Notes: a model not told the origin generated them from the sequence alone. Shown: positions 15,751 to 43,153, counted from the stretch's first letter. The stretch: DNA of 50,042 nt from an uncultured bacterium (GCA_965365235.1 CBDUAX010000001.1:1-50042), one strand, 5' to 3'. Program-made: numbers and translations.

Positions 15751-17102
15751 GCGCCCACGAGGAGCCAGCTGATTCCCACGATCACCAGCAACCCGATCTC
15801 GGCGGCCTGAACCTTCTGCCGGCCCTTCTTCCCATGGTACCAGGCGATGATCCCAGAGACAGCCACGGCGCAGAGGTATGTGTTGAGTGCGTGCTTGTAG
15901 CTCTCCAGCGGAAGCACCTCCATGTCTGCCAACTGGTTTACGAAACTCAGCGCCGCGTAGCCCAGGACCGCCGTCACCGCCACAATCTGAGGTAACCTTC
16001 GACGGATCAGGGAGTCGAGAAGATTGTCGGAGCCTACGGGACTCGTGTCCACATTCGGGCCACCTGTGGACTCGGCCCGCAGAGCTTGGACGACATACCG
16101 GGCGCTGGGGCGCTTGTCGGGGTTCTTGGAGAGGCAGCGCGCGAGCAGGTCCGCCAGGTCCTGGTCCACTCCGGGACGGAGGGAGGTGATGGGCCGAGGC
16201 TCGGATCGAAGGTGCGCCAGGTTCATGTCCACCTTCCCCTTTGCGGCAAACGGTCCCTCGCCGGTGAGGATCTCGTACCCCAACAACCCAAGGGCGTAGA
16301 TGTCCGTCCCTTCGGTGGGGTCCTCCCCCTTGAGCTGTTCAGGAGAGAGATACCCGGTTGTTCCGATCGTCTCTCCCACCCGAGTGAGGCGAGGGTCGGT
16401 GTTTCGACCCTGGGGAAGAAGCCCGGCCAGCCCGAAGTCGGAGAGGAGGACACGATCCTTATCCTTGTCACACAAGACGTTCTCAGGCCGAACGTCTCGG
16501 TGTACAAACCCGTTCTCGTGGGCCGAAGCCAAGGCATCGGCGACCTCGATGAGGACGCGCCTGGCCGACGGAATGGACAGGGTGCCTTCCGCCTCCAGCT
16601 TGTCCTCCAGCGTTCCGCCCTTCACATACTGCATGACCAGGTAGGGAAGACCATCGGATAGATAGCCGAACCGGTAGACCTCCACCGCATTCCTATGGTC
16701 CAATGCGGCGGAGGCCTTGGCTTCTCGTTCGAACCGACCCCGAGCCGTGGCGTCCTCAGCCAGGTTCTGGGAGAGGATCTTCACAGCTACGAGCCGATCC
16801 AGGGAGCGCTGACGAGCGAGAAAAACCTCGGCCATACGCCCGGACCCCAGATGGCGCATAACTTCCAGGTCTGGCGCCAACTCTCCCTTCAGAAAGTCTA
16901 GGCGATTGGGTCCTGCCTGGGTTTCCTCGGCCATTTCTCGAGCGGGCTTAGGGGGGAATGGACCACTCGCGGCCCGTTCACAGTGGCGACCGCAATAGGA
17001 ACCATAAGGAGCCAGGTCCCGGGTACACAAGCGTGGCCCGAGCTTCGAGTCGGAGCCGGGACCCAGGCATACCCCCCTCGAGTCGGGTGTGATGGGCATC
17101 AC
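15732..17102 (-). CDS. Hanks-type Ser/Thr protein kinase with C-terminal membrane helices
   Basis: GSGRMAEVFLA, VAVKIL, HRDVRPENVL, DFGLAG and YLSPEQ. C-terminal TM segments are present. The N-terminal roughly 55 aa are uncertain. Confidence 0.9.
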   Translation of the reverse strand: MMPITPDSRGVCLGPGSDSKLGPRLCTRDLAPYGSYCGRHCERAASGPFPPKPAREMAEETQAGPNRLDFLKGELAPDLEVMRHLGSGRMAEVFLARQRSLDRLVAVKILSQNLAEDATARGRFEREAKASAALDHRNAVEVYRFGYLSDGLPYLVMQYVKGGTLEDKLEAEGTLSIPSARRVLIEVADALASAHENGFVHRDVRPENVLCDKDKDRVLLSDFGLAGLLPQGRNTDPRLTRVGETIGTTGYLSPEQLKGEDPTEGTDIYALGLLGYEILTGEGPFAAKGKVDMNLAHLRSEPRPITSLRPGVDQDLADLLARCLSKNPDKRPSARYVVQALRAESTGGPNVDTSPVGSDNLLDSLIRRRLPQIVAVTAVLGYAALSFVNQLADMEVLPLESYKHALNTYLCAVAVSGIIAWYHGKKGRQKVQAAEIGLLVIVGISWLLVGAWILIS

Positions 17103-17174
17103 AGCCCCCGATAGTACGATGAACCAGTTTTTTGGGGAGGGGTCCTGACCTGTAGCGTTCTACCGGGAAAAGCC

Positions 17175-18233
17175 GTGGTTGAGCTTCCAGTTCTCAAGCA
17201 GTCCAGGGAGTGGTTGACCGGAAAGACGGGTCGTCGCAGCGACCGAACCTTTCGCGTCAGAATTCTCGTCCAACTTCTCTTCGCTCTGGTCTCGATTGTT
17301 ATCGGTTTCCAGATCGCCGGGTTTTATCGGGCCGCATTGGCCGGCTCCCTTCCGCTTCCGACCCGGCCTCCTGGCGTAGAAGGGTACCTCCCCATCAGCG
17401 GGCTGATGGGGTTGTTGGACTGGGGCTACCAGGGGACCCTCAACACCATCCATCCGGCTGCAACGATCCTCGTGGTCATCGCCCTGTTTCTGGCGATTCT
17501 CCTACGAAAGGCATTTTGCTCCTGGGTGTGCCCGGTAGGGTTCCTTTCCGAGTTGCTGGCCCGTTTCGGGCGCTGGTCGTTCGGTCGGAACTTCCGGCCA
17601 TGGAGGTGGTTGGACGTACCGCTCCGGAGCTTGAAGTACCTCCTCATGGCTTTTTTCGTGGGAGCGGTCCTTTCCATGACGGCATCGGAGCTTCAGGGAT
17701 TCATCCAGTCGCCCTACAACAGGGTGGCTGACATCAAGATGGGGCTCTTCTTCGTCGACATGAGCCGGACGGGAATTCTGGTGGTGGGTGGGCTGGTCTT
17801 GTCATCGATCTTCGTTTCGGGATCCTGGTGCCGGTATCTGTGCCCGTACGGAGCTCTCCTGGGCCTTTTTTCATGGATCTCCCCCAATCGGATCGGACGG
17901 GACAATGGCCGGTGCGTTGAATGTGGGCTCTGTGACAAGGTTTGTATGGCGCGGATCCCCGTTTCCCAGAAGCACAATGTCCTCAACCCAGAATGCACAG
18001 GATGCCTTGACTGTGTAGCGGTTTGTCCGGTACCGGATACATTACAGATGAACCTCTTAAAACACCGACCGGTCCGGCCCATGGCTTTTGCAGGGGCCGT
18101 ACTCGGACTCTTCCTGGCCGGATACCTGGGGGCACGGGTAACCGGAAGCTGGGCAAACCAGATCTCCGATGTGGAGTACGTGGAACGGCTCCAGAATATC
18201 GACTCTCCCTTATACGGACACCCGGGCCGGTAG
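17175..18233 (+). CDS. membrane polyferredoxin of the NapH/MauN/NosR/CcoG type (4Fe-4S binding)
   Basis: GTG start. Two Cx3CP motifs (CSWVCPVG, CRYLCPYG) lie between TM helices, and there are two ferredoxin motifs (CVECGLCDKVC, CTGCLDCVAVCP). Confidence 0.85.
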   Translation: MVELPVLKQSREWLTGKTGRRSDRTFRVRILVQLLFALVSIVIGFQIAGFYRAALAGSLPLPTRPPGVEGYLPISGLMGLLDWGYQGTLNTIHPAATILVVIALFLAILLRKAFCSWVCPVGFLSELLARFGRWSFGRNFRPWRWLDVPLRSLKYLLMAFFVGAVLSMTASELQGFIQSPYNRVADIKMGLFFVDMSRTGILVVGGLVLSSIFVSGSWCRYLCPYGALLGLFSWISPNRIGRDNGRCVECGLCDKVCMARIPVSQKHNVLNPECTGCLDCVAVCPVPDTLQMNLLKHRPVRPMAFAGAVLGLFLAGYLGARVTGSWANQISDVEYVERLQNIDSPLYGHPGR

Positions 18234-18306: not shown

Positions 18307-19506
18307 ATGAAGAACCGGTCGTGGCAAATACTGACTTTGATGGGCCTGGTGACTGTGGGGCTTCCTCTCCACGGCCAGGAGACATCTGTCAAGTTCGGAG
18401 GCCAGGTTCGGCCTCGCATGGAGGGTCGGGATCCCGTGGCTGGCGAGCGAGATGTCTTCACCTCCATGAGGGTGAGGGGAGCTCTGGATGCGAGTCTGGA
18501 GAACCAGGTGAGAGTGTTCGTCCAGTTTCAGGACGTACGACTCTTCGGTGAGGAGACGAATACACTTGGAGACTATTCGGGAGACAACCTGGACCTGCAT
18601 CAGGGTTTCCTGGAGTTGGGCTCCGTACCCCACTTTGGCGGAGTCTTCAGGGTCGGTCGGCAGGAGATGGCTCTGGGTGAGCAGCGGCTGGTTGGAGCGG
18701 TGAACTGGACCCAGCAGGGCCGCAGTTTCGACGGAGCCCGATACACCACCCCCTCTCTGGGCAGCCTGACGATCGACCTCTTTGGGATGAAGCTTCGTGA
18801 AGAGACGGCTAGCACCCAGGAGTTCGATTCAGAATTCTGGGGGGCTTGGGGAAACATCGACCTTGGGGAGCGAGGGTCTCTGGAAGTCTTCGGGCTCCTG
18901 ACCACAGACTCCCGCGATGAAGGGACCGAAGAGCGAACGCTGGGCGCCCTCTGGAGAGGGACGGCTGGACCGGTCCAACTGAGGGCCGAGGGAAGCCTTC
19001 AAGGGGGCACCCGGGGAGACGAGGACGTATCGGCGTTTATGGTGGGCCTCAGGGCCGGCATCAACCTCTCGGACGTCGGCACCGTCACCCTATGGTACGA
19101 CCACCTCTCCGGTGACGAAGATCCTGACGATGGAGAGAGCGGGGTCTTCAATACCCTCTTCGCCACCAACCACGCCTTCTATGGGTTCGCCGACTACTTC
19201 CTCAATATTCCGGTCCATACCGGTGGTTTGGGCCTCAGGGACACGGCCCTCAAGTTCGCTTTCTTCCCATGGGAGCAGACACGGCTCACGGTGGACCTCC
19301 ACATTTTCCAGACGGCCCAGGACGGCTCTCTTTCCACTCAGTCCCTTGGGAATGAGTTCGATGTCACCCTCAGTCGTCCCATCTCGCAGGGCCTGAGCCT
19401 GGGGGCCGGTTACGCCTACTTCCAGGCAAAGGATGGAATGGAGGAGCTGGGACGCCTCGAAGAAGACGCCCAGTGGTTCTATCTGATGCTGGACGCGGCG
19501 TTTTAG
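18307..19506 (+). CDS. outer-membrane porin, alginate-export (AlgE-like) family
   Basis: ATG 18307 gives the signal peptide MKNRSWQILTLMGLVTVGLPLHGQE. The core FRVGRQEMALGEQRLVGAVNWTQQGRSFDGARY is typical of the Alginate_exp family. Ends in F. Confidence 0.7.
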   Translation: MKNRSWQILTLMGLVTVGLPLHGQETSVKFGGQVRPRMEGRDPVAGERDVFTSMRVRGALDASLENQVRVFVQFQDVRLFGEETNTLGDYSGDNLDLHQGFLELGSVPHFGGVFRVGRQEMALGEQRLVGAVNWTQQGRSFDGARYTTPSLGSLTIDLFGMKLREETASTQEFDSEFWGAWGNIDLGERGSLEVFGLLTTDSRDEGTEERTLGALWRGTAGPVQLRAEGSLQGGTRGDEDVSAFMVGLRAGINLSDVGTVTLWYDHLSGDEDPDDGESGVFNTLFATNHAFYGFADYFLNIPVHTGGLGLRDTALKFAFFPWEQTRLTVDLHIFQTAQDGSLSTQSLGNEFDVTLSRPISQGLSLGAGYAYFQAKDGMEELGRLEEDAQWFYLMLDAAF

Positions 19507-19590
19507 GGCGGTCCGTTAGACCGGGCGGGGAGGGGGATTGAGGCGCTCACCGGACCGGGTATCGCCTGCAGGGGGAAACCCATAATATCC

Positions 19591-19608
19591 CTGTGATCCC
19601 TGTCACAG
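19591..19608. promoter_or_regulatory. CRP/HcpR-type operator CTGTGA-N6-TCACAG upstream of the Rieske-Nap operon
   Basis: CTGTGATCCCTGTCACAG has perfect 6+6 inverted arms and is centred about 80 nt upstream of ATG 19679. The same architecture occurs at 44776..44793 and 43154..43171. Confidence 0.6.
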
Positions 19609-19678
19609 CCGCTTCCAGAGACGCTCGGTACCTTGGTGCCCAGGTGGGAAATCCGGAAATCCCAGAGGGGGATCCAGA

Positions 19679-20296
19679 ATGTCAGATTCCGAACCGACGG
19701 TAGGGAGAGACCAGGACGACCGCAGGGCCTTCCTGGGCAAGGCCTCGAACGCTGCGATGGCAGCCGGTCTGGTTGGTGGCTACGGAGGATTGGGCGCCAT
19801 CGCGGTCCGGTACCTGTACCCGGCCGGTGACACGGACATGGCGTGGCAGTACGTGGTGGAGGAGGACGAAGTGGATGTGGGGGCTTCGATCTTGTACAAA
19901 GGTCCCTCTGGAGAGACCATCAATATTGCCCGCCAGGGCCGAGGAAATGGGGTAGCCGATTTCATCGCCCTCTCCAGCACCTGTCCCCACCTGGGATGCC
20001 AGGTTCGTTGGGAAGGACAGAACGAGCGCTTCTTTTGCCCTTGCCACAACGGTGTTTTTGATCCCTCGGGGAAAGGGATCGGGGGGCCCCCAGGGGATGC
20101 CGGACAGAGTCTTGCAGAATACCCACTGAAACTTGAGGGCGGACTCTTGCATATTGCGGTTCCCGTCGTACGCCTGGCGGACGGATCCCTCGCCGAGGGG
20201 GAGGTCCTGGTGGCGGAAGAGAGACCCGAGGGCCCCGGCCATGATCCCTGCTTGGCCCCGCCCTCTTCCGGTGGGGGGAAGGTCAGGAGGGGCTGA
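19679..20296 (+). CDS. Rieske [2Fe-2S] subunit of a cytochrome bc/b6f-type complex
   Basis: Tat motif DDRRAFLGKA with a TM anchor. Rieske boxes CPHLGC and CPCHNG. Confidence 0.9.
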   Translation: MSDSEPTVGRDQDDRRAFLGKASNAAMAAGLVGGYGGLGAIAVRYLYPAGDTDMAWQYVVEEDEVDVGASILYKGPSGETINIARQGRGNGVADFIALSSTCPHLGCQVRWEGQNERFFCPCHNGVFDPSGKGIGGPPGDAGQSLAEYPLKLEGGLLHIAVPVVRLADGSLAEGEVLVAEERPEGPGHDPCLAPPSSGGGKVRRG

Positions 20297-20298
20297 CC

Positions 20299-21348
20299 AT
20301 GAGCCAGGTCCTGAACTGGGTGGGAGAGAGGCTTCCCATCTCCGGGAGGGAGCTCAAGGAACTAACCAACGAGCCCGTTCCCTACCATCTGAAACGCTGG
20401 TGGTTCGCCCTTGGAGGGACCCCCGCATACCTGTTCGTGGTTCAGATCTTCACGGGAATCCTCCTGGCATTTTATTATGAGGCTTCTCCTTCCACGGCCT
20501 ACCAATCGGTAGAGTTCATCACAAGAGAGGTTTCCTTCGGGTGGTTCATCCGGAGCCTCCACAAGTGGGCGGCCACCCTCATGATCGCCGCCGTGATTCT
20601 TCATCAGATCCGGGTGTATTTCACGGGTGCCTACCGCCGTCCGCGAGAGATCAACTGGTTCGTGGGCATGTGTCTTCTGCTGACGACCCTCATGACAGGG
20701 TTCACCGGGTACAGCCTGGTGTTCGAACAGCTGAGCTTCTGGGGAGCTACGGTGGGTGCCAACATCGCCGACGCCACACCTCTGATCGGGGGGTTTTTGA
20801 AGGCGATGATGCTTGGGGGAGAAAGCTACAACCAGGCAACCCTGTCACGCTTCTTCGTGCTCCATGCTGCCATCCTGCCGGTGACCATCGTTCTGTTGGT
20901 GGCGGTCCACATCACCATCATCCGGCTTCAGGGGGTGACGGAGTTCCAATTCGAAGATGAGAAGACCGGCTCGAGGAAGACCTTCAACTTCTTCCCCGAT
21001 CACCTCTATACCGAGCTCATGATCGGCTTGGTTCTCATGATCCTCCTGAGCGCCTTGGCCACCATCTTCCCCGCTACCCTGGGGCCGGCCGCCAATCCCC
21101 TTCAGACACCGGAAGTCATCAAGCCCGAGTGGTTCTTCTACGTGGCGTTCCGTTGGCTGAAGCTCTTCACCGGTACGGCCGCCATTCTGAGCATGGGGTT
21201 TGTTCTTTTCGTCATGTTCGCGTGGCCCTTTATCGACGCACTCATCCGGAAGAAGACCCGGTTCCAGGAGGCCTCCGTCTGGATCGGAATCCTGGGAGTA
21301 CTGGCCATCATCGGGCTGACCCTTTGGGAAGCCATCGCCAAGCACTGA
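20299..21348 (+). CDS. cytochrome b (fused b6 + subunit-IV-like)
   Basis: Starts 2 nt after the Rieske stop. Motifs WWFALGG, FIRSLHKWAATLMIAAVILHQIRVYFTGAY, and the Qo-site PEW motif (IKPEWFFY) in the C-terminal part. Confidence 0.9.
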   Translation: MSQVLNWVGERLPISGRELKELTNEPVPYHLKRWWFALGGTPAYLFVVQIFTGILLAFYYEASPSTAYQSVEFITREVSFGWFIRSLHKWAATLMIAAVILHQIRVYFTGAYRRPREINWFVGMCLLLTTLMTGFTGYSLVFEQLSFWGATVGANIADATPLIGGFLKAMMLGGESYNQATLSRFFVLHAAILPVTIVLLVAVHITIIRLQGVTEFQFEDEKTGSRKTFNFFPDHLYTELMIGLVLMILLSALATIFPATLGPAANPLQTPEVIKPEWFFYVAFRWLKLFTGTAAILSMGFVLFVMFAWPFIDALIRKKTRFQEASVWIGILGVLAIIGLTLWEAIAKH

Positions 21349-21357
21349 GGCACGTAA

Positions 21358-22995
21358 ATGACCCTCGAGACAAAACGCATCGTTATCGCTTCTTTGGGCG
21401 GACTCTTCCTTCTGTCCCTGGTTTTCGTTCAGTGGATGGAGACCGCAAGGAAGGCGGAGGAGGCGGGGTTGAGAGATGCCCATGTCGCCGTGCCGGCGGC
21501 TTCGGAACAGTGTGTGGACTGCCATGCCGAGGAGAACCCGGGCATTGTCTCGCACTGGACGGGAAGTACCCACGCCGAGCGGGGCGTGGGGTGCTATGAC
21601 TGCCACATGGCGGTCCCCGACGATGCCGACGCCTACCTCCATCATGGGGTGCAGGTGGCAACGGTAGTCACGCCCAGGGATTGTGCCCGATGCCACGACG
21701 CTGAGGCATCGGAGTTTTCCCAGAGCCACCACGCGGCAGCCGGGAATATCCTCGCTTCGTTGGACAACTTCCTGGCTGAGACGGTGGAGGGGGCCCGGAT
21801 GGACTTCAACCCCCACTCACCGACACCGGGAAGGGCCTTCGAGTCCGCGAACGGCTTCGCTTCCGCCAACTCAGGGTGCAAGCAATGCCATGGGGCCCAG
21901 GTCGGACTGGTTGCCACGGATGGTAGCATCATTACCGCGGACCATCTCCAACCCGATGAAGACGGGCTCCCGACCAATCAAGATGCTGTGGCCCGCATCG
22001 CCCTGGACGAGAACGGAAAGCCCTACCTGGCCCCCTCCGGTTGGCCGAATACCGGGATCGGACGCCTGAACCTGGATGGGTCCAAGGGTTCCTGCACGGC
22101 ATGTCATTCCCGCCACGACTTCTCACCCCGGAGGGCCAGACAACCCGAGAACTGCGGAAAATGCCATCTGGGTCCTGATCATCCCCAGAAGGAGATCTAC
22201 GAGGAGTCCAAGCATGGGATCGCATATCGAGACCTCAAAGAGGACATGAACCTCGCCTCAGAGAGCTGGGTTCTGGGGGAGGACTATGCTGCGGCTCCCA
22301 CCTGCGCGACTTGCCACATGTCCGGGAACCTCCGGAATGGCGGGCGAATCACCCATGACCCGGGGGAACGGATCTCGTGGACCAACCGCCCCGCGGTGAG
22401 CCTTGTCATGGACACGGATATCAACCACTCCATCGTCACCGAAACCGATCCGGAGACCCGGCGATCGCTCATCCATGACACCTGGACGGAGAAGCGAGAC
22501 CGGATGAAGGAGGTCTGCACACACTGTCATACTGATGACTATGTGAACTCCTTCTACAGCCAGTACGACGACCTGGTGGTTCTGTACAACGAGAAGTTCG
22601 CCAAGCCCGGCTTGGCCATCATGGCGTCAATCCTGGAGAACGACCTACGGACCTCCACTCAGTTCGATGAAGAGATCGAGTGGTCCTGGTTCTACCTCTG
22701 GCACCACGAGGGCCGAAGGGCCCGGCACGGTGCCTCCATGATGGCGCCGGATTACACCCATTGGCACGGGATGTACGAGGTGGCCGAGCGCTTCTACATG
22801 GAGCTGATCCCACAGGCTCGGGAAATCGCCGCTCACGCCATGACGAGCGGGCACGCCGCCGCAGGTCGAGCCGTAAGCGCGGTCATCGATGAGATCCTGG
22901 CTCGGCCCGAACACATCTGGTTCGAGGAGGGGGCTGAAGGGCAGGCGGAAGCCATCCGGAGAGAGATGGAACGACGCTACGGCAGGGGCGGATGA
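21358..22995 (+). CDS. membrane-anchored octahaem cytochrome c, hydroxylamine-oxidoreductase (HAO)-like family
   Basis: Eight CxxCH motifs (CVDCH, CYDCH, CARCH, CKQCH, CTACH, CGKCH, CATCH, CTHCH) and no CxxCK. N-terminal hydrophobic anchor IVIASLGGLFLLSLVFVQW. HAO-like blocks GPDHPQKEIYEESKHG and WFYLWHHEGRRARHGASMMAPDYTHWHG. The family assignment is from memory of these blocks. Confidence 0.78.
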   Translation: MTLETKRIVIASLGGLFLLSLVFVQWMETARKAEEAGLRDAHVAVPAASEQCVDCHAEENPGIVSHWTGSTHAERGVGCYDCHMAVPDDADAYLHHGVQVATVVTPRDCARCHDAEASEFSQSHHAAAGNILASLDNFLAETVEGARMDFNPHSPTPGRAFESANGFASANSGCKQCHGAQVGLVATDGSIITADHLQPDEDGLPTNQDAVARIALDENGKPYLAPSGWPNTGIGRLNLDGSKGSCTACHSRHDFSPRRARQPENCGKCHLGPDHPQKEIYEESKHGIAYRDLKEDMNLASESWVLGEDYAAAPTCATCHMSGNLRNGGRITHDPGERISWTNRPAVSLVMDTDINHSIVTETDPETRRSLIHDTWTEKRDRMKEVCTHCHTDDYVNSFYSQYDDLVVLYNEKFAKPGLAIMASILENDLRTSTQFDEEIEWSWFYLWHHEGRRARHGASMMAPDYTHWHGMYEVAERFYMELIPQAREIAAHAMTSGHAAAGRAVSAVIDEILARPEHIWFEEGAEGQAEAIRREMERRYGRGG

Positions 22996-25379
22996 TCATG
23001 AAGCGCAGAAACTTTCTGAAAACGTTGGGGGCCAGCACCGCTGGCATCGCCGCCTTCTCATGTCAGGACCAGGAGGCTGCCCGACGCATTGCCTCCGAGC
23101 AGGGGTCCGTCCAGGATGCAGACCTGACCTGGACCAAGGCGCCTTGTCGATACTGTGGGACCGGTTGTGGTGTTGAGGTCGGTGTGAAAGAGAACCGCAT
23201 TTTGGCGGTGCGAGGAGACGAGGCCAGCCCAGTCAACAGGGGACTCCTCTGCGTGAAGGGTTACCACCTCCCCGCCATGCTCTACGGAGAGGACCGCCTC
23301 AGGTACCCCATGCTCCGAAACCCGGACGGAAACGGGTTCTCACGGATCTCCTGGGACGAAGCGTTGGACCTCATCGCGCAGAAGTACCAGGAAGCCCTGG
23401 ACGAGGCGGGACCCACATCTGTCGCCTTCTACGGGTCGGGACAGTGGGGCATTCACGACGGGTATGCCGTGACCAAGTGGTTCAGGGGGGGGCTCAAGAG
23501 TAACAATGTGGAGCCCAACGCGCGGCTCTGCATGGCCAGCGCCGTGATGGGGTTCGTGACGACGTTCCAGAGCGACGAGCCGATGGGGTGCTACGAGGAC
23601 TTCGAGGCCGGCGACGACTTCATCCTCTGGGGCAACAACATGGCCGAGATGCACCCCGTCCTCTTCTCTCGGATCCTGGCCAACAAACGAGAAAACCCTG
23701 GAGTCCGGATCGTCGATCTAGGCACGCGACGGACGCCCACGTCGGACTACGCCGACATGTACGTGGAGTTCAAACCCAACACCGACCTGGCCCTGGCCAA
23801 TGGAATCCTCCACCTCCTCGTCCAGAATGGGCAGGTGGATCAGGCCTTCGTCCAGGAGAACGTGACCTTCCGACGAGGGATCGAGGAGTTGGAGCGTATC
23901 GGATACGGGTCCTTCGGGGAGGATGGTCTCGGACTGAGTTCAGACGATGGACCGGCCGAGCACTACAGGTTCTCCGACCAGGCCCAGGTGTCTTCATTCG
24001 ATGAGATGGTGGTGTTCCTGGCCGATTACACCCCGGCTCGGGTCAGCGAGATTTGTGGGGTCCCGGAAGGACAGATCCGGGCTCTGGCCGAGATGTACGG
24101 GGATCGGGACCGGGGCACGGTGAGCCTCTGGTGCATGGGCGTGAACCAGCACGTCCGGGGCACCTGGATGAACAACCTCATCACCGACCTTCACCTCATC
24201 ACTGGGAAGATCAGCCGTCCGGGGAACAATCCCTTCAGTCTTACCGGCCAGCCCTCGGCCTGTGGCACCGCTCGAGAGGTAGGGACCTTGTCCAACCGGC
24301 TGCCGGCCGACCTGGTGGTCATGAACCCGGAGCATCGGGCGAAGGCGGAGGAGATATGGGGACTTCCCTCCGGGACTATCCCGGAGCGGCCCGGCTACCA
24401 TACCATGGACATGTTTCGTGCCTTCATGCGGGGTGACGTGAAAGTCATGTGGGTGCAAACCACGAACCCCTGGGTGAGCATCCCCAATGTCAACCGCATA
24501 CAGCGGGAACCGAACGACGGACGTTTCCTCATCGTCAGTGACATCTATCCGACTCCGACCACAGAAGCGGCCGACCTGGTTCTGCCCTCCGCCGGGTGGG
24601 TGGAGCGGGAAGGGACCTTCGGGAACTCGGAACGCCGCACACAGCACTGGGTGAAGGCGGTGGATCCACCCGGTGAAGCCCGTGAAGACGCCCTCCAGGT
24701 CATTCAGGTGGCCAAGCGTATGGGAATGGAAGACCTCTTCCCCTGGCCGGAGGACGCTTTCCACGAACCCATGTTCGAGGAATACCGGCGTTTCGGTTTG
24801 GGCATCGGGAAGGATCTCGCATCCTACCAGCAACTGAAGGAGACGAGGGGGCTTCTGTGGCCCGTGGTGGACGGGAAGGAAACCCGGTATCGGTATGCCG
24901 CCGGGTTCGATCCCTATGTTCAGAAGGAACGGGGAGTGCACTTCTACAAAGCGAAGGGTTTTGGGGAACGTGCGGCCTTCTGGCTCAGGCCGTACCATCC
25001 AGCGGCTGAGACGCCAGATGAGGAGTTCCCCTTCTGGCTTTCCACCGGTCGGATCCTGGAGCACTGGCATACAGGATCCATGACCCGGCGGGTGAAACAG
25101 CTCCACCAGGCCGCCCCCGAGGCCTACGTAGAAATCAACCGAGCCGATGCCACCGAGATGAGCATCAATTCGGGAGACATGGTCAGGGTGGTAAGCCGCC
25201 GTGGATCGCTGAGGCTCGCGGCACGGGTGGATGGACGAGGACAACCCCCTCGAGGATCCTTGTTCATTCCCTTCTTCGACGAACACCGCCTGGCCAATCT
25301 CCTCACCCTGGATGCCATGGACAACATCAGCAAAGAACCGGATTTCAAGAAGTGTGCGGTTCGGGTCGAGAAGGCGTGA
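22992..25379 (+). CDS. napA: periplasmic nitrate reductase catalytic subunit NapA
   Basis: ATGA overlap with the upstream stop. Tat signal MKRRNFLKTLGASTAGIAAF. N-terminal FeS motif CRYCGTGCGV...C(VKGY). Molybdopterin oxidoreductase body, 795 aa. Confidence 0.93.
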   Translation: MIMKRRNFLKTLGASTAGIAAFSCQDQEAARRIASEQGSVQDADLTWTKAPCRYCGTGCGVEVGVKENRILAVRGDEASPVNRGLLCVKGYHLPAMLYGEDRLRYPMLRNPDGNGFSRISWDEALDLIAQKYQEALDEAGPTSVAFYGSGQWGIHDGYAVTKWFRGGLKSNNVEPNARLCMASAVMGFVTTFQSDEPMGCYEDFEAGDDFILWGNNMAEMHPVLFSRILANKRENPGVRIVDLGTRRTPTSDYADMYVEFKPNTDLALANGILHLLVQNGQVDQAFVQENVTFRRGIEELERIGYGSFGEDGLGLSSDDGPAEHYRFSDQAQVSSFDEMVVFLADYTPARVSEICGVPEGQIRALAEMYGDRDRGTVSLWCMGVNQHVRGTWMNNLITDLHLITGKISRPGNNPFSLTGQPSACGTAREVGTLSNRLPADLVVMNPEHRAKAEEIWGLPSGTIPERPGYHTMDMFRAFMRGDVKVMWVQTTNPWVSIPNVNRIQREPNDGRFLIVSDIYPTPTTEAADLVLPSAGWVEREGTFGNSERRTQHWVKAVDPPGEAREDALQVIQVAKRMGMEDLFPWPEDAFHEPMFEEYRRFGLGIGKDLASYQQLKETRGLLWPVVDGKETRYRYAAGFDPYVQKERGVHFYKAKGFGERAAFWLRPYHPAAETPDEEFPFWLSTGRILEHWHTGSMTRRVKQLHQAAPEAYVEINRADATEMSINSGDMVRVVSRRGSLRLAARVDGRGQPPRGSLFIPFFDEHRLANLLTLDAMDNISKEPDFKKCAVRVEKA

Positions 25380-25444
25380 TGAGGCTTTCCGGGAGGGGCA
25401 CCGGATGGCGGGAAAGCGGTCCAGAGGCCGGCCGAGGTGCGGGC

Positions 25445-26056
25445 ATGCGGTTTCCCTCACTGTTCCAGAAGGCCTCGCTCCTGTTCTTGACGGGGAGTTT
25501 GATGGTGTCCCTGGTGGCCTGCGGGGATCGGGAGTGGGTTCCGGTCGAAGGCAAGGAGGGTGCGCTCAAGTCGAGCGCTAGCTACCGGGCGGATCGACGG
25601 CTCTACGACGGAGCACCTCCCGTGATCGGCCATGGTGACTTTGGGGCCGATTGTGCCACCTGCCATCATTCTCAGGGGATCTCGGTGGCCGGTGTTGGAT
25701 TCGCCCCGGCCTCTCCCCATGAGGATACGCGTGAGGAGGTGGCCACGACCCGGTGTAGACAATGCCATGTCTTTGCCAATACGACCGAGATTTTCGCTGA
25801 GAGTGACTTTGTCGGGTTCAGGCAGGACCTGAGGTCCGGAGGGCGCCTGTACGACGGCGCGCCACCAACCATCCCGCACAAGATCCTCATGCGGGAAAAC
25901 TGTGCGGCATGCCACACCGGGCCGGCTGCCCGGACTGAAATCGCCACGTCCCATCCGGAGCGGACCCGCTGTCGCCAGTGTCATGTTCCTGTCTCCACCC
26001 GCGACACCTTCTCTCTTCAAGGGACCATGGACCCGGAGGGATCGGACGAACCATGA
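25445..26056 (+). CDS. napB: tetrahaem lipoprotein made of two tandem NapB-like dihaem modules
   Basis: MRFPSLFQKASLLFLTGSLMVSLVAC has a lipobox. There are two repeats of RLYDGAPP(V/T)I(G/P)H...CxxCH...CRQCHV (CATCH/CRQCH and CAACH/CRQCH). An alternative start, ATG 25379, shares a base with the napA stop. Confidence 0.75.
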   Translation: MRFPSLFQKASLLFLTGSLMVSLVACGDREWVPVEGKEGALKSSASYRADRRLYDGAPPVIGHGDFGADCATCHHSQGISVAGVGFAPASPHEDTREEVATTRCRQCHVFANTTEIFAESDFVGFRQDLRSGGRLYDGAPPTIPHKILMRENCAACHTGPAARTEIATSHPERTRCRQCHVPVSTRDTFSLQGTMDPEGSDEP

Positions 26057-26610
26057 GTGATCTGCCGGCTGTGATGGAGTTGGGCCCGGAGGAAGAGGGG
26101 CGGCGCCTGTGGCAGGGGGCGGAGGAAGCTCAGAAAGAGGCCGCAAGCGATCTGGTGGCCTTGTTCGAGGTTCTGGACCTAGGGCTTCGGGCTGCAGAGG
26201 TGATGGTGACCCATCGGCTTCAGCCAGTGAAGGACGAGTTTCCGGCCACCATCGCCATCCAGCTCGAAACACCCACTCCTGAGGTGGAAGCCTATCGGGA
26301 CTCGGTGAGCGTGCCAAACGCGCTTCCGTTTGTCTCGGTTCTCGACCTGCTCAGCGAAGAAGGGTTGGAGTGCGTCAGCCCGAACCTGCATCGGGGCTGG
26401 GAGGATCGTCGGTTCTCATGTAAGCGTTCAAGGGTGACGGCGAAAGAGGCTCTGGGGATCACACTGGGGGAAGAGGAAAGGGAACAACTACTTCTTCTCG
26501 CCGCATATCGGAATCGGATCTTTCGGAGTCCTCCACCGGTGAGGGTTGTACGGGACGAGATCCTGGGGGCCTTTCCAGCCTTGAATCGGCTCATGAAAAG
26601 CCTGGTTTAA
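26053..26610 (+). CDS. hypothetical cytoplasmic protein, translationally coupled to the napB-like gene
   Basis: ATGA overlap (26053/26056). 185 aa, acidic, with no signal peptide and no motif I recognise. Confidence 0.55.
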   Translation: MSDLPAVMELGPEEEGRRLWQGAEEAQKEAASDLVALFEVLDLGLRAAEVMVTHRLQPVKDEFPATIAIQLETPTPEVEAYRDSVSVPNALPFVSVLDLLSEEGLECVSPNLHRGWEDRRFSCKRSRVTAKEALGITLGEEEREQLLLLAAYRNRIFRSPPPVRVVRDEILGAFPALNRLMKSLV

Positions 26611-26627: not shown

Positions 26628-27674
26628 CTATTTCTGCTCCAAATCCGGATATAGCCTCACCACGCACTCAGGGCAGAGACCGTGGGTGACCTCGGCGTCG
26701 GAATGGTCCTTGAGGTAGACCTCGATCCGATTCCAGTACCCATCGTCATCCCTGATCTTGTGGCATGATGAGCAGATGGGGATCAGGCCCTGGAGGGTCC
26801 TGACCTTCGAAAGGGCGATCTGAAGTTCCTCGATCAGTGCTTCCTTCTCCCGCTCCTCAGCCTTCCTGTCCGAGATATCGTGGATCAGGGAGCAGAGTAA
26901 CTGCCTCCCTCCGACCGAAATGGGCCCGCTGAACACCTCCACCTCCCGGACCGTTCCGTCGGCCAGGCGATGCGTGAAAAGGAAGTAGTTCCTCTGCTCT
27001 GCTTTTGCCCTCTCCATCTCTTCGAAGATCTCGTACTCAGAGAGGATGTTGATATCCGTGATCTTCGTTTCTCTGAGTTGCCCGCGGCTCATCCGGTAGA
27101 ACTCGGTAGCCCGGACATTGGCATCTTTGATTGAGCCCGTCTCGGGGTCGATGAGGAGTATGGGAGAGACGTTGTTCTCGAAGAGCGACCTGTACAGATC
27201 CTCCTGTTCTTGCCGCAGGGATTCGGCCTCTTCCCTGGCCGTCACGTCCTGGATGGTCTCCACAATGGCAGAAAGCTCTCCTCCGGCGTCCCGGATGGGC
27301 CAGGCGACAAACTCTTCTGAATATCGAACTCCGCCACGTTCAACGACCCTCACCTCGCTCTTCTCAACCTCCCCCGAGGCGAGTGCCCGGATCCCGGGAC
27401 AGTCCTCGCAGGGGTGGCTGCGGTCCAAGAGAGCCGAAAAACAGAACCGCCCCTCCAGAGGAAGCTTCTCGGGAAACCGGGATCGCACCGGCTGGTTGGC
27501 ATGCAGGATTTTCAGATCGGGGCTGAGGACGACGAGCCCGTCTCTCATCGAATCGAGGATCTCTCTCAGGAATCCTTCACTTTCATCTGGTACTCCTGGG
27601 ACATTCATTTCTGAACCTCGGTGGGGGATCAGATTTTGGTCCGGGGCTTCCTCGTACCTGCTACCCCGACCCAT
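26628..27674 (-). CDS. tandem-PAS sensor protein with C-terminal CxxC...CxxC zinc-ribbon-like tail
   Basis: Two PAS-like blocks (ILDSMRDGLVVLSPD..., LYRSLFENNVSPILLIDPETGSI...). The tail reads LIPICSSCHKIRDDDGYWNRIEVYLKDHSDAEVTHGLCPEC. An alternative start is ATG 27608. Confidence 0.85.
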   Translation of the reverse strand: MGRGSRYEEAPDQNLIPHRGSEMNVPGVPDESEGFLREILDSMRDGLVVLSPDLKILHANQPVRSRFPEKLPLEGRFCFSALLDRSHPCEDCPGIRALASGEVEKSEVRVVERGGVRYSEEFVAWPIRDAGGELSAIVETIQDVTAREEAESLRQEQEDLYRSLFENNVSPILLIDPETGSIKDANVRATEFYRMSRGQLRETKITDINILSEYEIFEEMERAKAEQRNYFLFTHRLADGTVREVEVFSGPISVGGRQLLCSLIHDISDRKAEEREKEALIEELQIALSKVRTLQGLIPICSSCHKIRDDDGYWNRIEVYLKDHSDAEVTHGLCPECVVRLYPDLEQK

Positions 27675-33915: not shown

Positions 33916-34701
33916 TCAGATAAGGGCGCTGTTCCCTCCTGCCATGGCAAAGACGGTCAAGAAAAGGACCACCCCGGCGATCAGCCCGAACATGAAGACG
34001 GTGTAGGAAGCTCGCAGAAGCCGGTACTTCCTCTCCAACACTCCACCCAACCCGTAGATGTCCCGGCTCATGCTCCCGTAGGCCCGGTCTGGATCCTGGA
34101 TGAGCTCCTTCATCCCCTCGACATACTCGTCTTCCTCGAGGCTAATGAAGTTTCCGAAGAACAAGATGTTCGCCTTCCCCGCTCGGACGTCATCCAGGGT
34201 CACAGGATTCCGCGTTACTCTTGGGCGTGCCGAGAGGACAGCGTAGATCATAGAGATCAAACACCCCACGAGGAGAACCGTGGTGGGAAGCAAAAGCCAG
34301 CGATTCTCCATGATTCTCGGGTATATGGAGGCGAGGAGAATGGACATGATGATCCCGTTGATGGAGATCATGATGTTTGCTTTGTTGTCCGCCAGAGCGC
34401 TCAGGTCCAGGTGGGTCCGGTAGCTGGTCCGGAACATGGTCTCCACCCCGCGAGGCGTCCGTGCCTTCGGGTCCTCCTTCTGTTTTCCCTTTTTTTTCTT
34501 TTTCTTCTTGGAAGATGGGGAACCATCCACCAGATCCCCATCTCCCCCCGAGGTAGTGCCAAGGTGGGCGACCCCGTCCAGATCCGATGACTCGCCATAG
34601 GGCTCCCCCTCCCTGCCCTCGGAATTCGGCTTGGAAAGTTCAGCTTCAGCCCCCTCCACCTCGGTAGGGGGGACAGGGTCCCTCTGGAATTCGTCTGCCA
34701 C
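33916..34701 (-). CDS. three-TM membrane protein resembling the DUF5706 / PycTM (Pycsar effector) domain, with a disordered acidic and poly-Lys N-terminus
   Basis: GTG 34701 is preceded by GGGAGA with an 8-nt spacer. The ORF-track ATG 34893 would overlap the upstream gene. Core block RGVETMFRTSYRTHLDLSALADNKANIMISINGIIMSILLAS plus two further TM helices. The family is recognised from memory only. Confidence 0.6.
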   Translation of the reverse strand: MADEFQRDPVPPTEVEGAEAELSKPNSEGREGEPYGESSDLDGVAHLGTTSGGDGDLVDGSPSSKKKKKKKGKQKEDPKARTPRGVETMFRTSYRTHLDLSALADNKANIMISINGIIMSILLASIYPRIMENRWLLLPTTVLLVGCLISMIYAVLSARPRVTRNPVTLDDVRAGKANILFFGNFISLEEDEYVEGMKELIQDPDRAYGSMSRDIYGLGGVLERKYRLLRASYTVFMFGLIAGVVLFLTVFAMAGGNSALI

Positions 34702-34766
34702 GACTGAATCTCCCTGTGAGAACTCGGTCCTGCTTCCATGACTCGACCAGTGGCCAGCTTTACCCG

Positions 34767-37412
34767 CTAAAAGTTGAACCCACCACCACCGTAGAGAAAT
34801 CGAGTCCCCTGGTCGCTCCGGGCCATTGATACCGTCATGGTGAAGGTCTCGAGGATGGAAGCCCAGAGGCCGAATCCCAGGGACCGGTGCCACTCCGTTG
34901 ACGATTCCCCCTCGTACCAGACCCGCCCTGCCTCAGCCAGCATAAAGCCACCCCAGGTTCCCGGAAAGGCCACTGGTAGTTGCCCCAACGCCAGACGGAC
35001 CTCCGCATTTCCAAACGCCGACGCGTCTCCAGCGAAGCGGTCTTCGGCAAAACCCAGGAGGGTGGATGAGCCCCCGAGGGTAGCGGCCTCCTGATAGGGG
35101 AAGGGGCCCCAGATCTTCTCACCACCAAGCCGGAGAGCCAGAGTCGGATCGAATGGAAGCGCCTCCGTGGTCAGGTACCGAACTGCACGGCCCTGAATCG
35201 CACCAAACTCGGAGGTCACATCGGCCAGGCTCGGGAAGAAGCTGGCCTCCAGCTCGAGCTCTCCTCCAGCCCTGGGAAAGGCACGATCATCCACGTCGTT
35301 CCACCGCATCCTGCTGGTCAGGGCCAGGGACCCAAACCTGTCGAATCCATACGGGGCCTGAACGGAGAGCAAACCGCCCGGACTCTCGGCGGGGTCATGG
35401 AGGGAAAGTTCGACGCCAAATTCCGCCGTCAACTCGTCCGCCATCTCCCGGATCAGCGAAGCCCCCAACCGAAAGTCCCACCCGAAGGCCTCGTAGGCCC
35501 CGGTGTCGAGCTCGTCCTCCGTCTCGTTTCCGAATCCGTAGAATCGGTTCACCTCTGCCCCGGAGACCACTCCCCTGAGCCGGCCCCGGGAGTCATGATC
35601 CCAGAGGGGAAACTCCGTCTCTCCTTCCAGATGGAGATTTCCGGTTCGGGTGCCAAGCCCCAGGGTCACAGAGCTCTTTGTGCGATGAGGGTAGTGTCGG
35701 AATCCGTACCCTGTCCGAGTGATTTGCCCTCCAAGAAAAAACCCGGCGTCACCCTTGTAGCGAACCTCGGGAAGGAAGAGGGTTCGAGCTCCCCAATCCC
35801 GTGACCCCGCCCAGTGCGGATCATCATCGGGATCGTGGGGATCTTCGTAGTCGGTCTCGTCTACCCGAGTGCCGGACCCCGGCCGAAAGGTATTCGACCC
35901 AGAGCCGTCGTAGAACTCTACGTTCCCGCCCAGGCTAGCGTTGGAAACCTCCAGTGTGTCGTCCCCACCGCCTCCCACCAGAATGACTTTGATGCTTCCC
36001 TCGGCGATGCCCTGAACCCTTCCCCGATCATCATCTCCGTGGAGGTAGATTCTGACTTCCTCGGTCTCGTCGGGGTGGAAGACCCTCTCGAAGAAGGGCC
36101 CATCGCCACTCACCCCTCTTCTCGCCTGAAAGAGGCTGACCCGGAGGCTATCCCCAGGCAGCCTTTCAGCCAGAGCCAGTTCCTCTTCATCCGTGGCGCG
36201 GATCTCCACCCACCTGGCTTGGAGGCGATAATACCTCCAGGCGTACTCTCGGAGCCGATCGCGACGGTTCTTCAGGGACTGTGTCAGGTATTCGCCGATC
36301 TGCGCAAAGTATGGATCCGGGAGACTCCGGACAGCGTCCTCGATAACGGGATCAGGGAGGTGTGAAACGATCTCCTGGACCTCCGTCTCCCAATCGCTCC
36401 ACGACAAGGATGGGAGGATGAGTCGGTCCAACCGGCGGCCATTCCAACTCAGGTTGAACGGATCCGGATATTCGAACCCGTAACCGATGCGATGGGGAAG
36501 GGGGATCCGAGAGGCCCAGTTGATGACACCGTCCAGACGAGCCAATGCCCAGTCCCGGTCTCTGGGAATGGGAAGGAAGCGGATGGCATCTCCCTCCTCA
36601 AACCCGGCCCACCGCCACTGATCGGGATGGCGATCCCAGTCGCCCACCAGGGCATCGAGCAGTCGGGCCCGGAGGAAGCCCCGGGCATCCACCTGGTTTC
36701 GAGGGTCCTCCTCCAACCGCTCCAGGAACCGTGCCGAGCCCGTGACCATATCCGCCCCGGCAAAGCCCATCTCCCCATCTGGACCGTCGTCGGGCCGGAT
36801 TTCGATCCACCCCAGAAGACCGGCGTATTCCTCCCTGAACTCTCCCAGCAGAGGGTCGTCGGGCATGAGGACGAGTTGGGGGTCGGCATGAAGCACCCCC
36901 ACCGCGCCGAGGAGGGGGTCTACGACCATGGCCCCCAGGGGAAGTATGGAAGAAATGAAGTCCTGGGCTACGGCCGCAGCCACGGTCTGGCGCAAAGCCG
37001 GATCAAGGGCCCGGGCCGCATCCTTGTCCAACCCCCGGAAGTTGTAGACCTGTCCGTCCGACCCCTGAAGCCGGAGGGACCGGGTCTGGAGCCCACCTCC
37101 CTTTCGAATGGGAGTGAGCCCGCCTGCGAACGTCTCCAGGTCCAGGACCGGAGTGGGAACCGGGGTGGCCCAGAGGTCACGGTATCCGTCTCCCATCATG
37201 AACCGGTGGACGGCATTTGCGTCGAATCGGCTCTGGGGGGTTGCCCAGACGGTATCGCCGGGCCTGGGACGGGCTGGCGCCGGATCCTGGCCTGCCAGGG
37301 TGCCGGGGGCAGAGGCAAGGATACACCAGACCAACAAGAGGGCCCGGCAAAGGCAGCTTCTCGGGGGAAGGGCCTGAAGGCCATTCGAAAAAGAAATGCC
37401 GCCGTATGCCAT
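34767..37412 (-). CDS. outer-membrane protein: unknown about 560-aa periplasmic/surface domain fused to an Omp85/D15-type beta-barrel
   Basis: ATG 37412 lies 4 nt after the cyclase stop. Signal peptide MAYGG...LLLVWCILASAPGTLAGQ. The C-terminal barrel has ATLGGSSTLLGFAEDRFAG and a terminal ...FLYGGGGFNF. Confidence 0.8.
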   Translation of the reverse strand: MAYGGISFSNGLQALPPRSCLCRALLLVWCILASAPGTLAGQDPAPARPRPGDTVWATPQSRFDANAVHRFMMGDGYRDLWATPVPTPVLDLETFAGGLTPIRKGGGLQTRSLRLQGSDGQVYNFRGLDKDAARALDPALRQTVAAAVAQDFISSILPLGAMVVDPLLGAVGVLHADPQLVLMPDDPLLGEFREEYAGLLGWIEIRPDDGPDGEMGFAGADMVTGSARFLERLEEDPRNQVDARGFLRARLLDALVGDWDRHPDQWRWAGFEEGDAIRFLPIPRDRDWALARLDGVINWASRIPLPHRIGYGFEYPDPFNLSWNGRRLDRLILPSLSWSDWETEVQEIVSHLPDPVIEDAVRSLPDPYFAQIGEYLTQSLKNRRDRLREYAWRYYRLQARWVEIRATDEEELALAERLPGDSLRVSLFQARRGVSGDGPFFERVFHPDETEEVRIYLHGDDDRGRVQGIAEGSIKVILVGGGGDDTLEVSNASLGGNVEFYDGSGSNTFRPGSGTRVDETDYEDPHDPDDDPHWAGSRDWGARTLFLPEVRYKGDAGFFLGGQITRTGYGFRHYPHRTKSSVTLGLGTRTGNLHLEGETEFPLWDHDSRGRLRGVVSGAEVNRFYGFGNETEDELDTGAYEAFGWDFRLGASLIREMADELTAEFGVELSLHDPAESPGGLLSVQAPYGFDRFGSLALTSRMRWNDVDDRAFPRAGGELELEASFFPSLADVTSEFGAIQGRAVRYLTTEALPFDPTLALRLGGEKIWGPFPYQEAATLGGSSTLLGFAEDRFAGDASAFGNAEVRLALGQLPVAFPGTWGGFMLAEAGRVWYEGESSTEWHRSLGFGLWASILETFTMTVSMARSDQGTRFLYGGGGFNF

Positions 37413-37416
37413 GAAA

Positions 37417-42405: not shown

Positions 42406-43125
42406 TCAGTTTTTGGGTGGCGGATCCGAAGCCTCTTCGCCTCGGGCCAGGACTTCCAACTTGCCGATGGACAGGATGGTCACCTGTCTGCCTTCCGTTT
42501 GGATAACTCCTTTTTGCCGAAGATCGGCCAGGGCCCGCGCCACGCTCTCGCGGCTCGTGGCCAACTCATGGGCCAACTCGGACTGGGTTCGTGAGAGTTT
42601 GAACGTGCCTCCATTTGTCAGCACTCCTGCCATTTCAGCCAGCTCCAGAAGGGTTTTGGCGACCCGGCTTGGAACGCTTCGAAGGGTCACCTTCTCCACG
42701 ACCTGGACCAACTTCCTCAAGCGGCGGCCGAGGTTTCGGATCACTGCATCGGCGATCTCGGGGTGCTCATGGTACAGTCTCTGGAAGTCGTCGCGGGACA
42801 GGAAGAAGAGCTCGGAGTCCTCTGCCGTTCGGCCAGCCGCGGGGTATTCCCCCTCGTCGAAAACCGGCAGCTCCGCGACACTCTGAACGGGCACTTCGGA
42901 GTGGAGGATCTGTTCTCGGCCGTCTGCCGTTGTCCTGTAGATTTCCACCCTTCCCTTCACCAGCACGTAGACACCCCGGGCCGTCTCCCCCTTCCGGAAG
43001 AGGATCGTGCCGGCTGACGCCGACCTGTGAACCATACGTTGGGCGACCAACTCCAAAGCCTCCTCTGAGAGGCCCTTGAAGAAGGAAACGCCCTTCAACT
43101 GGTCTTTCGGATTCCGAAAAGGCAC
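42406..43125 (-). CDS. Crp/Fnr-family transcription regulator (CRP-like recognition helix)
   Basis: cNMP-binding-like domain (FFKGLSEEALELVA..., FRKGE, YVLVKGRVEIY). HTH LSRTQSELAHELATSRESVARAL with an R-E-x3-R pattern. No N-terminal FNR Cys cluster. GTG 43125 is preceded by AAGGA. The ORF-track ATG 43194 is the alternative. Confidence 0.85.
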   Translation of the reverse strand: MPFRNPKDQLKGVSFFKGLSEEALELVAQRMVHRSASAGTILFRKGETARGVYVLVKGRVEIYRTTADGREQILHSEVPVQSVAELPVFDEGEYPAAGRTAEDSELFFLSRDDFQRLYHEHPEIADAVIRNLGRRLRKLVQVVEKVTLRSVPSRVAKTLLELAEMAGVLTNGGTFKLSRTQSELAHELATSRESVARALADLRQKGVIQTEGRQVTILSIGKLEVLARGEEASDPPPKN

Positions 43126-43153
43126 AGCTGTCCTTGTCAGGCTCAGGCGGAAA

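Follow-up and report, generated by a model that had tools for sequence, protein, structure and literature searches.

A conserved Rieske/cytochrome b, octahaem cytochrome and NapA-double NapB operon as a candidate module for energy-conserving periplasmic nitrate and nitrite respiration

We analyzed a 50,042-nt stretch of DNA from an uncultured bacterium (GCA_965365235.1 CBDUAX010000001.1:1-50042; hereafter, the window) that carries, on its plus strand, a compact six-gene operon joining a Rieske/cytochrome b module to an octahaem cytochrome of the hydroxylamine oxidoreductase (HAO) family and to the periplasmic nitrate reductase NapA with a NapB-like partner. An open reading frame (ORF) listing and direct reading of the DNA place the Rieske gene at 19679-20296, followed after a 2-nt gap by the cytochrome b gene (20299-21348) and, 9 nt further on, by the octahaem gene (21358-22995), which overlaps napA (22992-25379) in an ATGA. 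The napB-like gene ends at 26056 and starts either at an ATG at 25445, leaving a 65-nt gap, or at a GTG at 25379 that shares a base with the napA stop; the ATG is the more likely start, and it gives the protein a lipoprotein signal ending in LVAC. A second ATGA overlap leads into the last gene, which encodes an orphan protein (26053-26610). The unit is preceded by a 172-nt intergenic region (19507-19678) and closed by a convergent PAS-domain gene on the minus strand (26628-27674) that ends 17 nt past the orphan gene. Gene coordinates, junctions and flanking features thus all agree with the original prediction that had proposed this unit, and profile searches of each protein upheld all six product assignments. 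Terminator-like hairpins inside the operon numbered 10, versus 7.9 ± 3.0 expected in shuffled sequence, i.e., no excess, and no internal terminator or promoter rose above chance. As the hairpins are at the level of shuffled sequence, the sequence holds nothing against a single transcript, and we infer that the six genes are co-transcribed. Several of the proteins have best matches bearing Gemmatimonadota or Longimicrobiales names, which makes it very probable that the window derives from Gemmatimonadota.

The first two genes encode what appears to be a complete quinol-oxidizing core. The Rieske protein matches PF00355 (Pfam, E = 7e-10), has both cluster boxes intact (CPHLGC and CPCHNGVF) and carries a Tat signal/anchor motif, DRRAFLGK, while its matches to the b6f, bc1 and arsenite-oxidase Rieske models are weak. 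A Ser and a Tyr after the second box raise the potential of bc1-type Rieske clusters; here, the residues at that place (CPCH-N-G-V-F) include neither, which suggests a low-potential protein of the menaquinol type. Cytochrome b is encoded as a single fused gene with a b6-like N-terminal part and a subunit-IV-like C-terminal part (PF00033, 183 bits; PF00032, 38 bits), and its best solved relatives are cytochrome b6 (E = 1e-52) and, over residues 240-340, subunit IV. Its ligands for haems bL and bH, His88/His102 and His189/His204, show the b6-type spacings of 14 and 15, and a Qo motif of the PEWY type, PEWF, lies at residues 279-282. The sequence requirements for a Q cycle are accordingly all present, from which turnover and proton translocation are predicted. 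No gene for a mono- or dihaem cytochrome c1/f subunit is present in the operon; instead, the position of the cytochrome c subunit of bc complexes is occupied by the gene for an anchored HAO-family octahaem protein.

This octahaem cytochrome has eight CxxCH motifs in the order of the HAO family, is homologous to that family over its whole length (PF13447) and carries one N-terminal hydrophobic helix at about residues 5-28. A profile built from 43 homologues and searched against solved structures found its nearest relative in IhOCC of Ignicoccus hospitalis (4QO5, E = 2e-105), with far weaker matches to the anammox protein Kustc0458/HAOr (E = 2.5e-54) and to Nitrosomonas HAO (4FAS/1FGJ, E about 1e-53). 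The predicted HAO-family assignment therefore stands, and an unrelated multihaem family does not come into question, but the prediction missed that the kinship is closer to the reductive IhOCC than to the oxidizing HAO. IhOCC has been described as an octahaem enzyme that reduces nitrite and is free of the P460 cross-link (PMC9250108); this cross-link marks the oxidizing HAOs, whereas family members without it reduce nitrite (PMC12485887, PMC9250108). In our alignments, Asp274-His275 coincides with the distal catalytic pair Asp267-His268 of Nitrosomonas HAO and is invariant in 82 of 82 octahaem sequences. Across the same set, the eight haem motifs, the distal His, Arg344 and a PDY(T/A)HWHG segment are invariant or nearly so, and the haem count fits a single five-coordinate haem. 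In the profile alignment, His468 (His in 76 of the 82 sequences, Gln in 5) stands where Nitrosomonas HAO has its cross-linking Tyr467, so that this tyrosine is apparently absent, although this is an alignment-level and not a structural result because a conserved Tyr466 sits two residues earlier. The active-site Tyr334 of the Nitrosomonas enzyme likewise aligns to the invariant Arg344. Because of these two substitutions and of the proximity to IhOCC, we classify the protein, by alignment, as an IhOCC-type, reductive member of the family and not as a hydroxylamine oxidizer, even if public annotation often labels it "hydroxylamine dehydrogenase/oxidoreductase." The N-terminal helix and the VQW.E..R segment that follows it are kept from Gemmatimonadota to Planctomycetota and Bacteriovoracaceae, whereas in three homologues that have no Rieske/cytochrome b genes next to them, one of them from Anaeromyxobacter sp. 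PSR-1, the helix is replaced by unrelated ordinary signal peptides. Retention only beside Rieske/cytochrome b genes is the pattern expected of an anchor that packs on the membrane domain of the Rieske/cytochrome b complex.

NapA exceeds both equivalog cut-offs (NF010055, 965 bits versus 904; TIGR01706, 943 versus 931), has a Tat motif (KRRNFLK) and an N-terminal 4Fe-4S motif (CRYCGTGC), and is closest in structure to the NapA subunits of heterodimeric NapAB enzymes (3ML1, 2NYA and 1OGY). The protein encoded behind it is unusual: after its lipobox (LVAC) come four CxxCH motifs arranged in two internally repeated dihaem halves, each with the NapB hallmarks RLYDGAPP.I.H ... C..CH ... RCRQCHV. Four haem motifs are found in 31 of 31 orthologues. 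Against the Pfam model of NapB (PF03892), it scores 23.8 bits, under the cut-off of 25.1, and this same family is found in many of its homologues. We refer to this protein as a double NapB, and predict that it is the electron link between the membrane complex and NapA.

That these genes form a functional unit, as predicted, is strongly backed by conservation in two neighborhood searches. Relatives of the octahaem protein number at least 7997 at E <= 1e-10, and we surveyed the best 80 of at least 599 species-representative genome stretches that encode one. The cytochrome b gene adjoins the octahaem gene in 76 of the 80 loci, with the Rieske gene adjacent to it in almost all related loci. Where enough downstream DNA was available (71 loci), napA and a four-haem napB-like gene lie directly behind the octahaem gene in 33. 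Carriers of the five-gene unit span at least seven phyla, among them Gemmatimonadota, Acidobacteriota (including Vicinamibacterales), Planctomycetota, Krumholzibacteriota, Eiseniibacteriota and "Multivoradales," besides unclassified metagenome-assembled genomes (MAGs). Complete genomes with the unit include CP070812.1, OY762911.1 and OZ220742.1, and estuary and marine sediment samples were the source of the loci L002, L086 and L093. For a reciprocal test, the four-haem NapB served as the query against metagenome contigs. NapA is encoded immediately upstream of it wherever sequence on that side is available; in all 29 of the 29 loci that reach far enough, the octahaem gene lies upstream of NapA in turn, with cytochrome b and Rieske genes further upstream where the contig allows, without exceptions. 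The synteny of Rieske, cytochrome b, octahaem and napA genes is thus common, while its exact five-gene form was not found characterized.

The first three genes also occur by themselves. In the other 38 of the 71 loci, the napA and napB-like pair is not directly behind the octahaem gene; there, the next gene is usually convergent, and the Rieske/cytochrome b/octahaem trio therefore counts as an independent unit. Only two neighbors of the stand-alone trio recur, a porin in 25 loci and subunit I of a haem-copper oxidase in 7; nirK, nirS and nrfA do not recur near it, and no partner found in the surveyed loci accounts for it. Near the five-gene unit, a haem-copper oxidase subunit I (PF00115, about 573 aa) is encoded within a few kilobases in the loci L019, L022, L023, L052, L058, L063 and L161, which are mostly of the Acidobacteriota type. 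Two MAGs of Planctomycetales show a different combination (L047:11036-13402 and L070:6141-10239), in which napA, a small cytochrome c gene, napG and napH come after the trio, the NapA being more distant (613-687 bits) and under the cut-off.

From these observations we infer how the proteins might assemble and how electrons might run, as follows. (Mena)quinol would be oxidized by cytochrome b and the Rieske protein. The high-potential electron would pass from the Rieske cluster to the membrane-anchored octahaem cytochrome, standing in for cytochrome c1/f, while the second quinol electron would be recycled via the two b haems in a Q cycle. From the octahaem protein, two branches are conceivable: one would end at its own five-coordinate catalytic haem (haem 4), where nitrite would be reduced, the product being ammonium if IhOCC and epsilon-Hao are the model, or NO if anammox HAOr is (PMC12485887, PMC9250108); the other would lead through the lipid-anchored four-haem double NapB to NapA, where nitrate would be reduced to nitrite, and the nitrite made there would then be reduced at haem 4. 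Periplasmic reduction of nitrate and nitrite would in this way build a proton-motive force, unlike the routes through NapC and NapGH. The predicted feeding of NapAB by the Rieske/cytochrome b proteins is plausible, and so is the predicted action of the octahaem protein on nitrite or hydroxylamine. Overall, we regard it as moderately probable that the operon encodes a self-contained, dedicated, Q-cycle-capable module for periplasmic quinol:nitrate/nitrite respiration. A stronger version would have the five proteins assembled in a single membrane supercomplex that takes nitrate all the way to ammonium in the periplasm, an eight-electron reduction driven by the Q cycle, with the double NapB as a tether and wire replacing NapC; this version is more doubtful, and we propose it only tentatively.

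Much of this scheme has precedents. Rieske/cytochrome b genes grouped with an HAO-like octahaem gene were rightly attributed in the original prediction to anammox bacteria (Kuenenia; PMC3578206), and such trios have been noted in Nitrospina, Kuenenia and Methylomirabilis (PMC3578206). The clusters of Nitrospira (N. moscoviensis and N. japonica), Nitrospina gracilis, Kuenenia stuttgartiensis (R/b-3, kuste4569-4574) and Methylomirabilis oxyfera resemble the window in combining a Rieske protein, a b6-type cytochrome b and an HAO-family octahaem cytochrome without a mono- or dihaem c1/f subunit, and it has been proposed that in them a periplasmic nitrite reductase is coupled directly to the quinone pool (PMC6311188, PMC3578206, PMC12485887), although for none is there a purified complex with proven activity. 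For Nitrospira, the proposal of quinol-linked nitrite reduction to ammonia came from genomic context and expression (PMC6311188), while R/b-3 of Kuenenia contains the HAO-like Kuste4574, which is close to HAOr and thought to reduce nitrite to NO (PMC12485887). The window differs from these clusters in that its cytochrome b is fused (split in Nitrospina), in that its octahaem protein is nearest to IhOCC instead of being of the anammox HAOr/Kuste4574 type and in that napA and a four-haem napB share the operon, whereas Methylomirabilis has napAB in a separate cluster with nirS (PMC6094997). One 5.5-kb contig labelled Candidatus Kuenenia sp. (L083, JAYSPO010001233.1) encodes a cytochrome b and an octahaem protein 70% identical to that of the window; this identity is much higher than Kuste4574 would lead one to expect, since Kuste4574 resembles HAOr closely while HAOr and the window protein are only distant relatives, and the contig is probably mis-binned or represents another paralogue.

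A further precedent is the nap locus of Caldithrix abyssi (Cabys_2564-2556), with napM, napA, napG, napH, Rieske, cytochrome b and epsilon-Hao genes, for which quinol oxidation by Rieske/cytochrome b, electron delivery to Nap and/or the octahaem protein and possible electrogenicity have been put forward (PMC5317091). Like the window, it unites Nap, Rieske/cytochrome b and an HAO-type octahaem protein lacking the tyrosine ligand in one locus without NapC. However, Caldithrix has the tetrahaem NapM, NapG, NapH and NapF but no NapB, whereas the window has the double NapB and neither NapM nor NapG, and the order is nap, Rieske/cytochrome b, Hao in the one and Rieske, cytochrome b, octahaem, NapA, double NapB in the other. 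The two Planctomycetales loci are nearer than the window to the Caldithrix arrangement. Taken together, the linkage in Caldithrix and the napA-cytochrome c-napG-napH sets of Planctomycetales indicate that the trio has been joined to Nap more than once. In Campylobacter jejuni, deletion of qcrABC revealed that Nap, and growth dependent on it, requires QcrABC, and an H+/2e- ratio of 2 was derived (Garg et al. 2018, PMC6195509). This is again a Nap without NapC that is fed by a menaquinol-oxidizing Rieske/cytochrome bc complex, making periplasmic nitrate reduction electrogenic, but qcr and nap do not form one operon, the c subunit is dihaem, NapGH occurs and NapB has its usual dihaem form; the Qcr-dependent N2O respiration of Wolinella belongs in the same group. 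Haloarchaeal clusters for a periplasm-facing Nar contain Rieske/cytochrome b genes (PMC3509893). They, too, link an outward molybdenum nitrate reductase to its own Rieske/cytochrome b, which was proposed to restore energy conservation, yet the reductase is NarGH and not Nap, a b-type cytochrome is the intermediate carrier and no octahaem protein takes part. IhOCC itself (Igni_0955) is, like the window protein, membrane-associated and without the P460 cross-link; it is archaeal, and the literature found mentions no linkage to Rieske/cytochrome b or Nap. In surveys of Planctomycetota MAGs, "hao" and "napAB" are both listed, but their adjacency goes unremarked (PMC10732223), some of these MAGs being among our surveyed loci. 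An octahaem protein of Phycisphaerae has been interpreted as a putative nitrite reductase, and one from Poriferisphaera corsica is mentioned as well (PMC11266412).

It follows that the wiring, for which the original prediction knew of no described operon, is not new as such: the Caldithrix locus has the same electron routes and possible electrogenicity, and parts of the concept were anticipated by the Campylobacter, haloarchaeal Nar and Nitrospira systems. The wiring principle and most of the building blocks have been described before. Apparently new are the arrangement of Rieske, cytochrome b, octahaem, NapA and double NapB, the obligate tie of the four-haem protein to that arrangement, the IhOCC-type identity of the octahaem protein and the breadth of the unit in uncultured phyla. 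A full-text literature search, subscription journals excepted, found no description of these five genes as one operon or of a four-haem NapB.

Beyond the operon, we looked for the genes that commonly serve Nap. NapC, NapG, NapD and NapF were found neither in the operon, as predicted, nor among the larger ORFs of the window, where NapD-sized ORFs outside the operon were not scanned; within the operon, the tight junctions leave no space for a napD or any further gene. The original prediction was right that the operon lacks a Nap quinol dehydrogenase but overlooked a gene of the NapH/MauN family of membrane ferredoxin-type proteins on the same strand, 1.4 kb upstream (17175-18233, +). Its product has two Fer4_5 domains with two CxxxCP motifs and two C-terminal 4Fe-4S motifs, reaches 84 bits with TIGR02163 against a cut-off of 213 and has no NapG partner. 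Among related loci, NapH-like genes adjoin the unit only in the two Planctomycetales MAGs, so the position is not conserved. Between this gene and the operon lies a gene for an outer-membrane beta-barrel of the alginate-export family (18307-19506, +; PF13372, E = 2e-27; likely start MKNRSWQ...), found at the same position in close relatives. A homologous porin adjoins the unit in 25 loci of several phyla, sometimes upstream, sometimes downstream, and its gene may be on either strand; it is associated with the unit, with membership unproven, and could be an outer-membrane channel for nitrate/nitrite.

The 172-nt region contains a perfect palindrome, TGTGATCCCTGTCACA (19592-19607), 72 nt before the Rieske ATG, of the CRP/FNR-family type TGTGA-N6-TCACA, and hence a candidate regulator-binding site. 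Three perfect copies of TGTGA-N6-TCACA are present in the window, versus 0.01 expected, all upstream of genes: the second (17088-17103) lies 72 nt before the start of the NapH-like gene, which may thus be co-regulated with the operon, and the third (44777-44792) lies just before a sensor-like DUF438-hemerythrin-PAS_10 gene (44809-46212, +). A copy with one mismatch (43155-43170) is located between a Crp/Fnr-family regulator gene (42406-43194, -) and a divergent gene for a second, soluble HAO-family octahaem protein (43323-44621, +), and each copy is followed by GCC. The latter protein (432 aa, eight CxxCH, ordinary signal peptide) has its closest solved relatives in the Kuenenia hydroxylamine oxidoreductase-like proteins 6T5E and 4N4J; its gene lies 17 kb from the operon and is flanked by the DUF438-hemerythrin-PAS_10 gene. 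This pattern supports a promoter within the 172-nt gap and looks like a small regulon under a Crp/Fnr-type regulator, for which the product of 42406-43194 is a candidate. In 74 related loci, the palindrome was absent from the DNA upstream of the Rieske gene, and it is therefore lineage-specific.

Several points weigh against the respiratory module that we favor. HAO-family enzymes are trimers, whereas Rieske/cytochrome b complexes are dimers. The kinship of the NapB-like protein is weak, with profile matches to three NapB structures at E = 0.004-0.07 only, and its AlphaFold2 model (from a 35-sequence alignment) reached a pLDDT of 48, too poor for a fold search, as may be expected for a haem protein modelled without haems. 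The upstream NapH-family gene with its identical palindrome could provide an alternative quinol route. The trio, moreover, stands without NapAB in about half of the related genomes. While the predicted single operon is borne out as a conserved five-gene unit, this independence of the trio was missed, and it implies that feeding NapA is not the core role of the trio and that NapAB is an add-on. Such independence also suits a different account, in which the octahaem protein would be a non-catalytic electron-transfer subunit replacing c1/f and the trio a quinol:cytochrome wire, with NapAB the sole terminal enzyme here and the stand-alone trio serving periplasmic reductases encoded elsewhere. The octahaem gene sits exactly at the position of the cytochrome c subunit of a bc complex with no other c-type subunit beside it, the trio is paired with two different Nap sets and often alone, as an electron hub would be, and the role of Rieske acceptor in anaerobic bc complexes has been proposed for multihaem cytochromes (PMC5317091). 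The HAO active-site Asp-His pair and a haem count consistent with a five-coordinate haem are, however, strictly invariant across phyla, and a mere wire would hardly keep them. Furthermore, the closest characterized relatives, IhOCC and HAOr, are nitrite reductases (PMC12485887, PMC9250108), and the Nitrospira homologue has been read as one from context and expression (PMC6311188). We therefore consider an octahaem protein devoid of catalysis plausible but less likely, though it is the most serious competitor of the module.

If the trio were instead a general complex III, napA would be adjacent for co-regulation only and would receive electrons from a donor of the NapC/NapGH type, such as the NapH-like protein. 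The palindrome at the same spacing before this NapH/MauN-family gene 1.4 kb upstream would fit such a scheme, as would the fact that the 50-kb window showed no further complex III genes. Yet this clade of NapA and the four-haem NapB turned up nowhere but directly behind the octahaem gene (29 of 29 loci), and the NapH-like protein is far under its cut-off, lacks a NapG partner and is not conserved beside the unit. In addition, two Phycisphaeraceae MAGs (L026 and L029) carry the trio even though Phycisphaerales have been reported to have alternative complex III instead of bc1 (PMC11266412), so that the trio looks like an accessory module; we judge a general complex III improbable. Least probable is an oxidative module, in which the octahaem protein would oxidize hydroxylamine (or NO) and pass the electrons to NapAB, or to the quinone pool through a reversed Rieske/cytochrome b reaction. 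Membership in the HAO family, the frequent public label "hydroxylamine dehydrogenase" and the second, soluble HAO-like octahaem protein encoded 17 kb away would speak for it, but His468 takes the position of the cross-linking Tyr467 in the profile alignment, amo and hzs genes are absent from the window, and the linkage to a nitrate reductase suits a reductive pathway.

If the proposed module is real, it would provide many uncultured bacteria of soil, sediment and marine habitats with a compact, energy-conserving nitrate/nitrite respiration that works without NapC, NapGH, NrfA, NirS and NirK, and which surveys of marker genes for denitrification and ammonification would miss. Its octahaem gene may currently be counted as the nitrification marker "hao," and the hydroxylamine dehydrogenase label may inflate apparent nitrification potential. 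Should the supercomplex exist, Gemmatimonadota, Acidobacteriota, Planctomycetota and several candidate phyla would possess an energy-conserving pathway of nitrate ammonification (or NO formation) that has gone unrecognized. In either case, the strict pairing of the four-haem NapB with the unit in the reciprocal search offers a testable handle on how a soluble Nap can be wired to a Rieske/cytochrome b complex.

The sixth gene, translationally coupled to the napB-like gene, encodes a cytoplasmic, all-helical protein of 185 aa with no match in Pfam or NCBIfam. Of its 521 homologues, those that bear names belong almost all to Gemmatimonadota or Longimicrobiales, with one record labelled Planctomycetota, and the protein is essentially confined to the Gemmatimonadota-type versions of the operon. 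Its AlphaFold2 model (pLDDT 90) has a weak fold similarity to HEPN domains only (2HSB and Csm6), and its invariant motif YRNRIFR reads RNxxxR, versus the RNxxxH of HEPN nucleases. A role as a Nap chaperone was rejected, as the model matches no NapD or TorD/NarJ structure. Elsewhere in the window, the product of a minus-strand gene at 33916-34893 has a transmembrane domain of the Pycsar effector type (PF18967); beside it, on the same strand, lie genes for a 919-aa protein without a family match (34767-37526) and for a 688-aa protein with a nucleotide cyclase domain and TPR repeats (37417-39483). These three genes (33916-39483) may constitute a cyclic-nucleotide anti-phage system.

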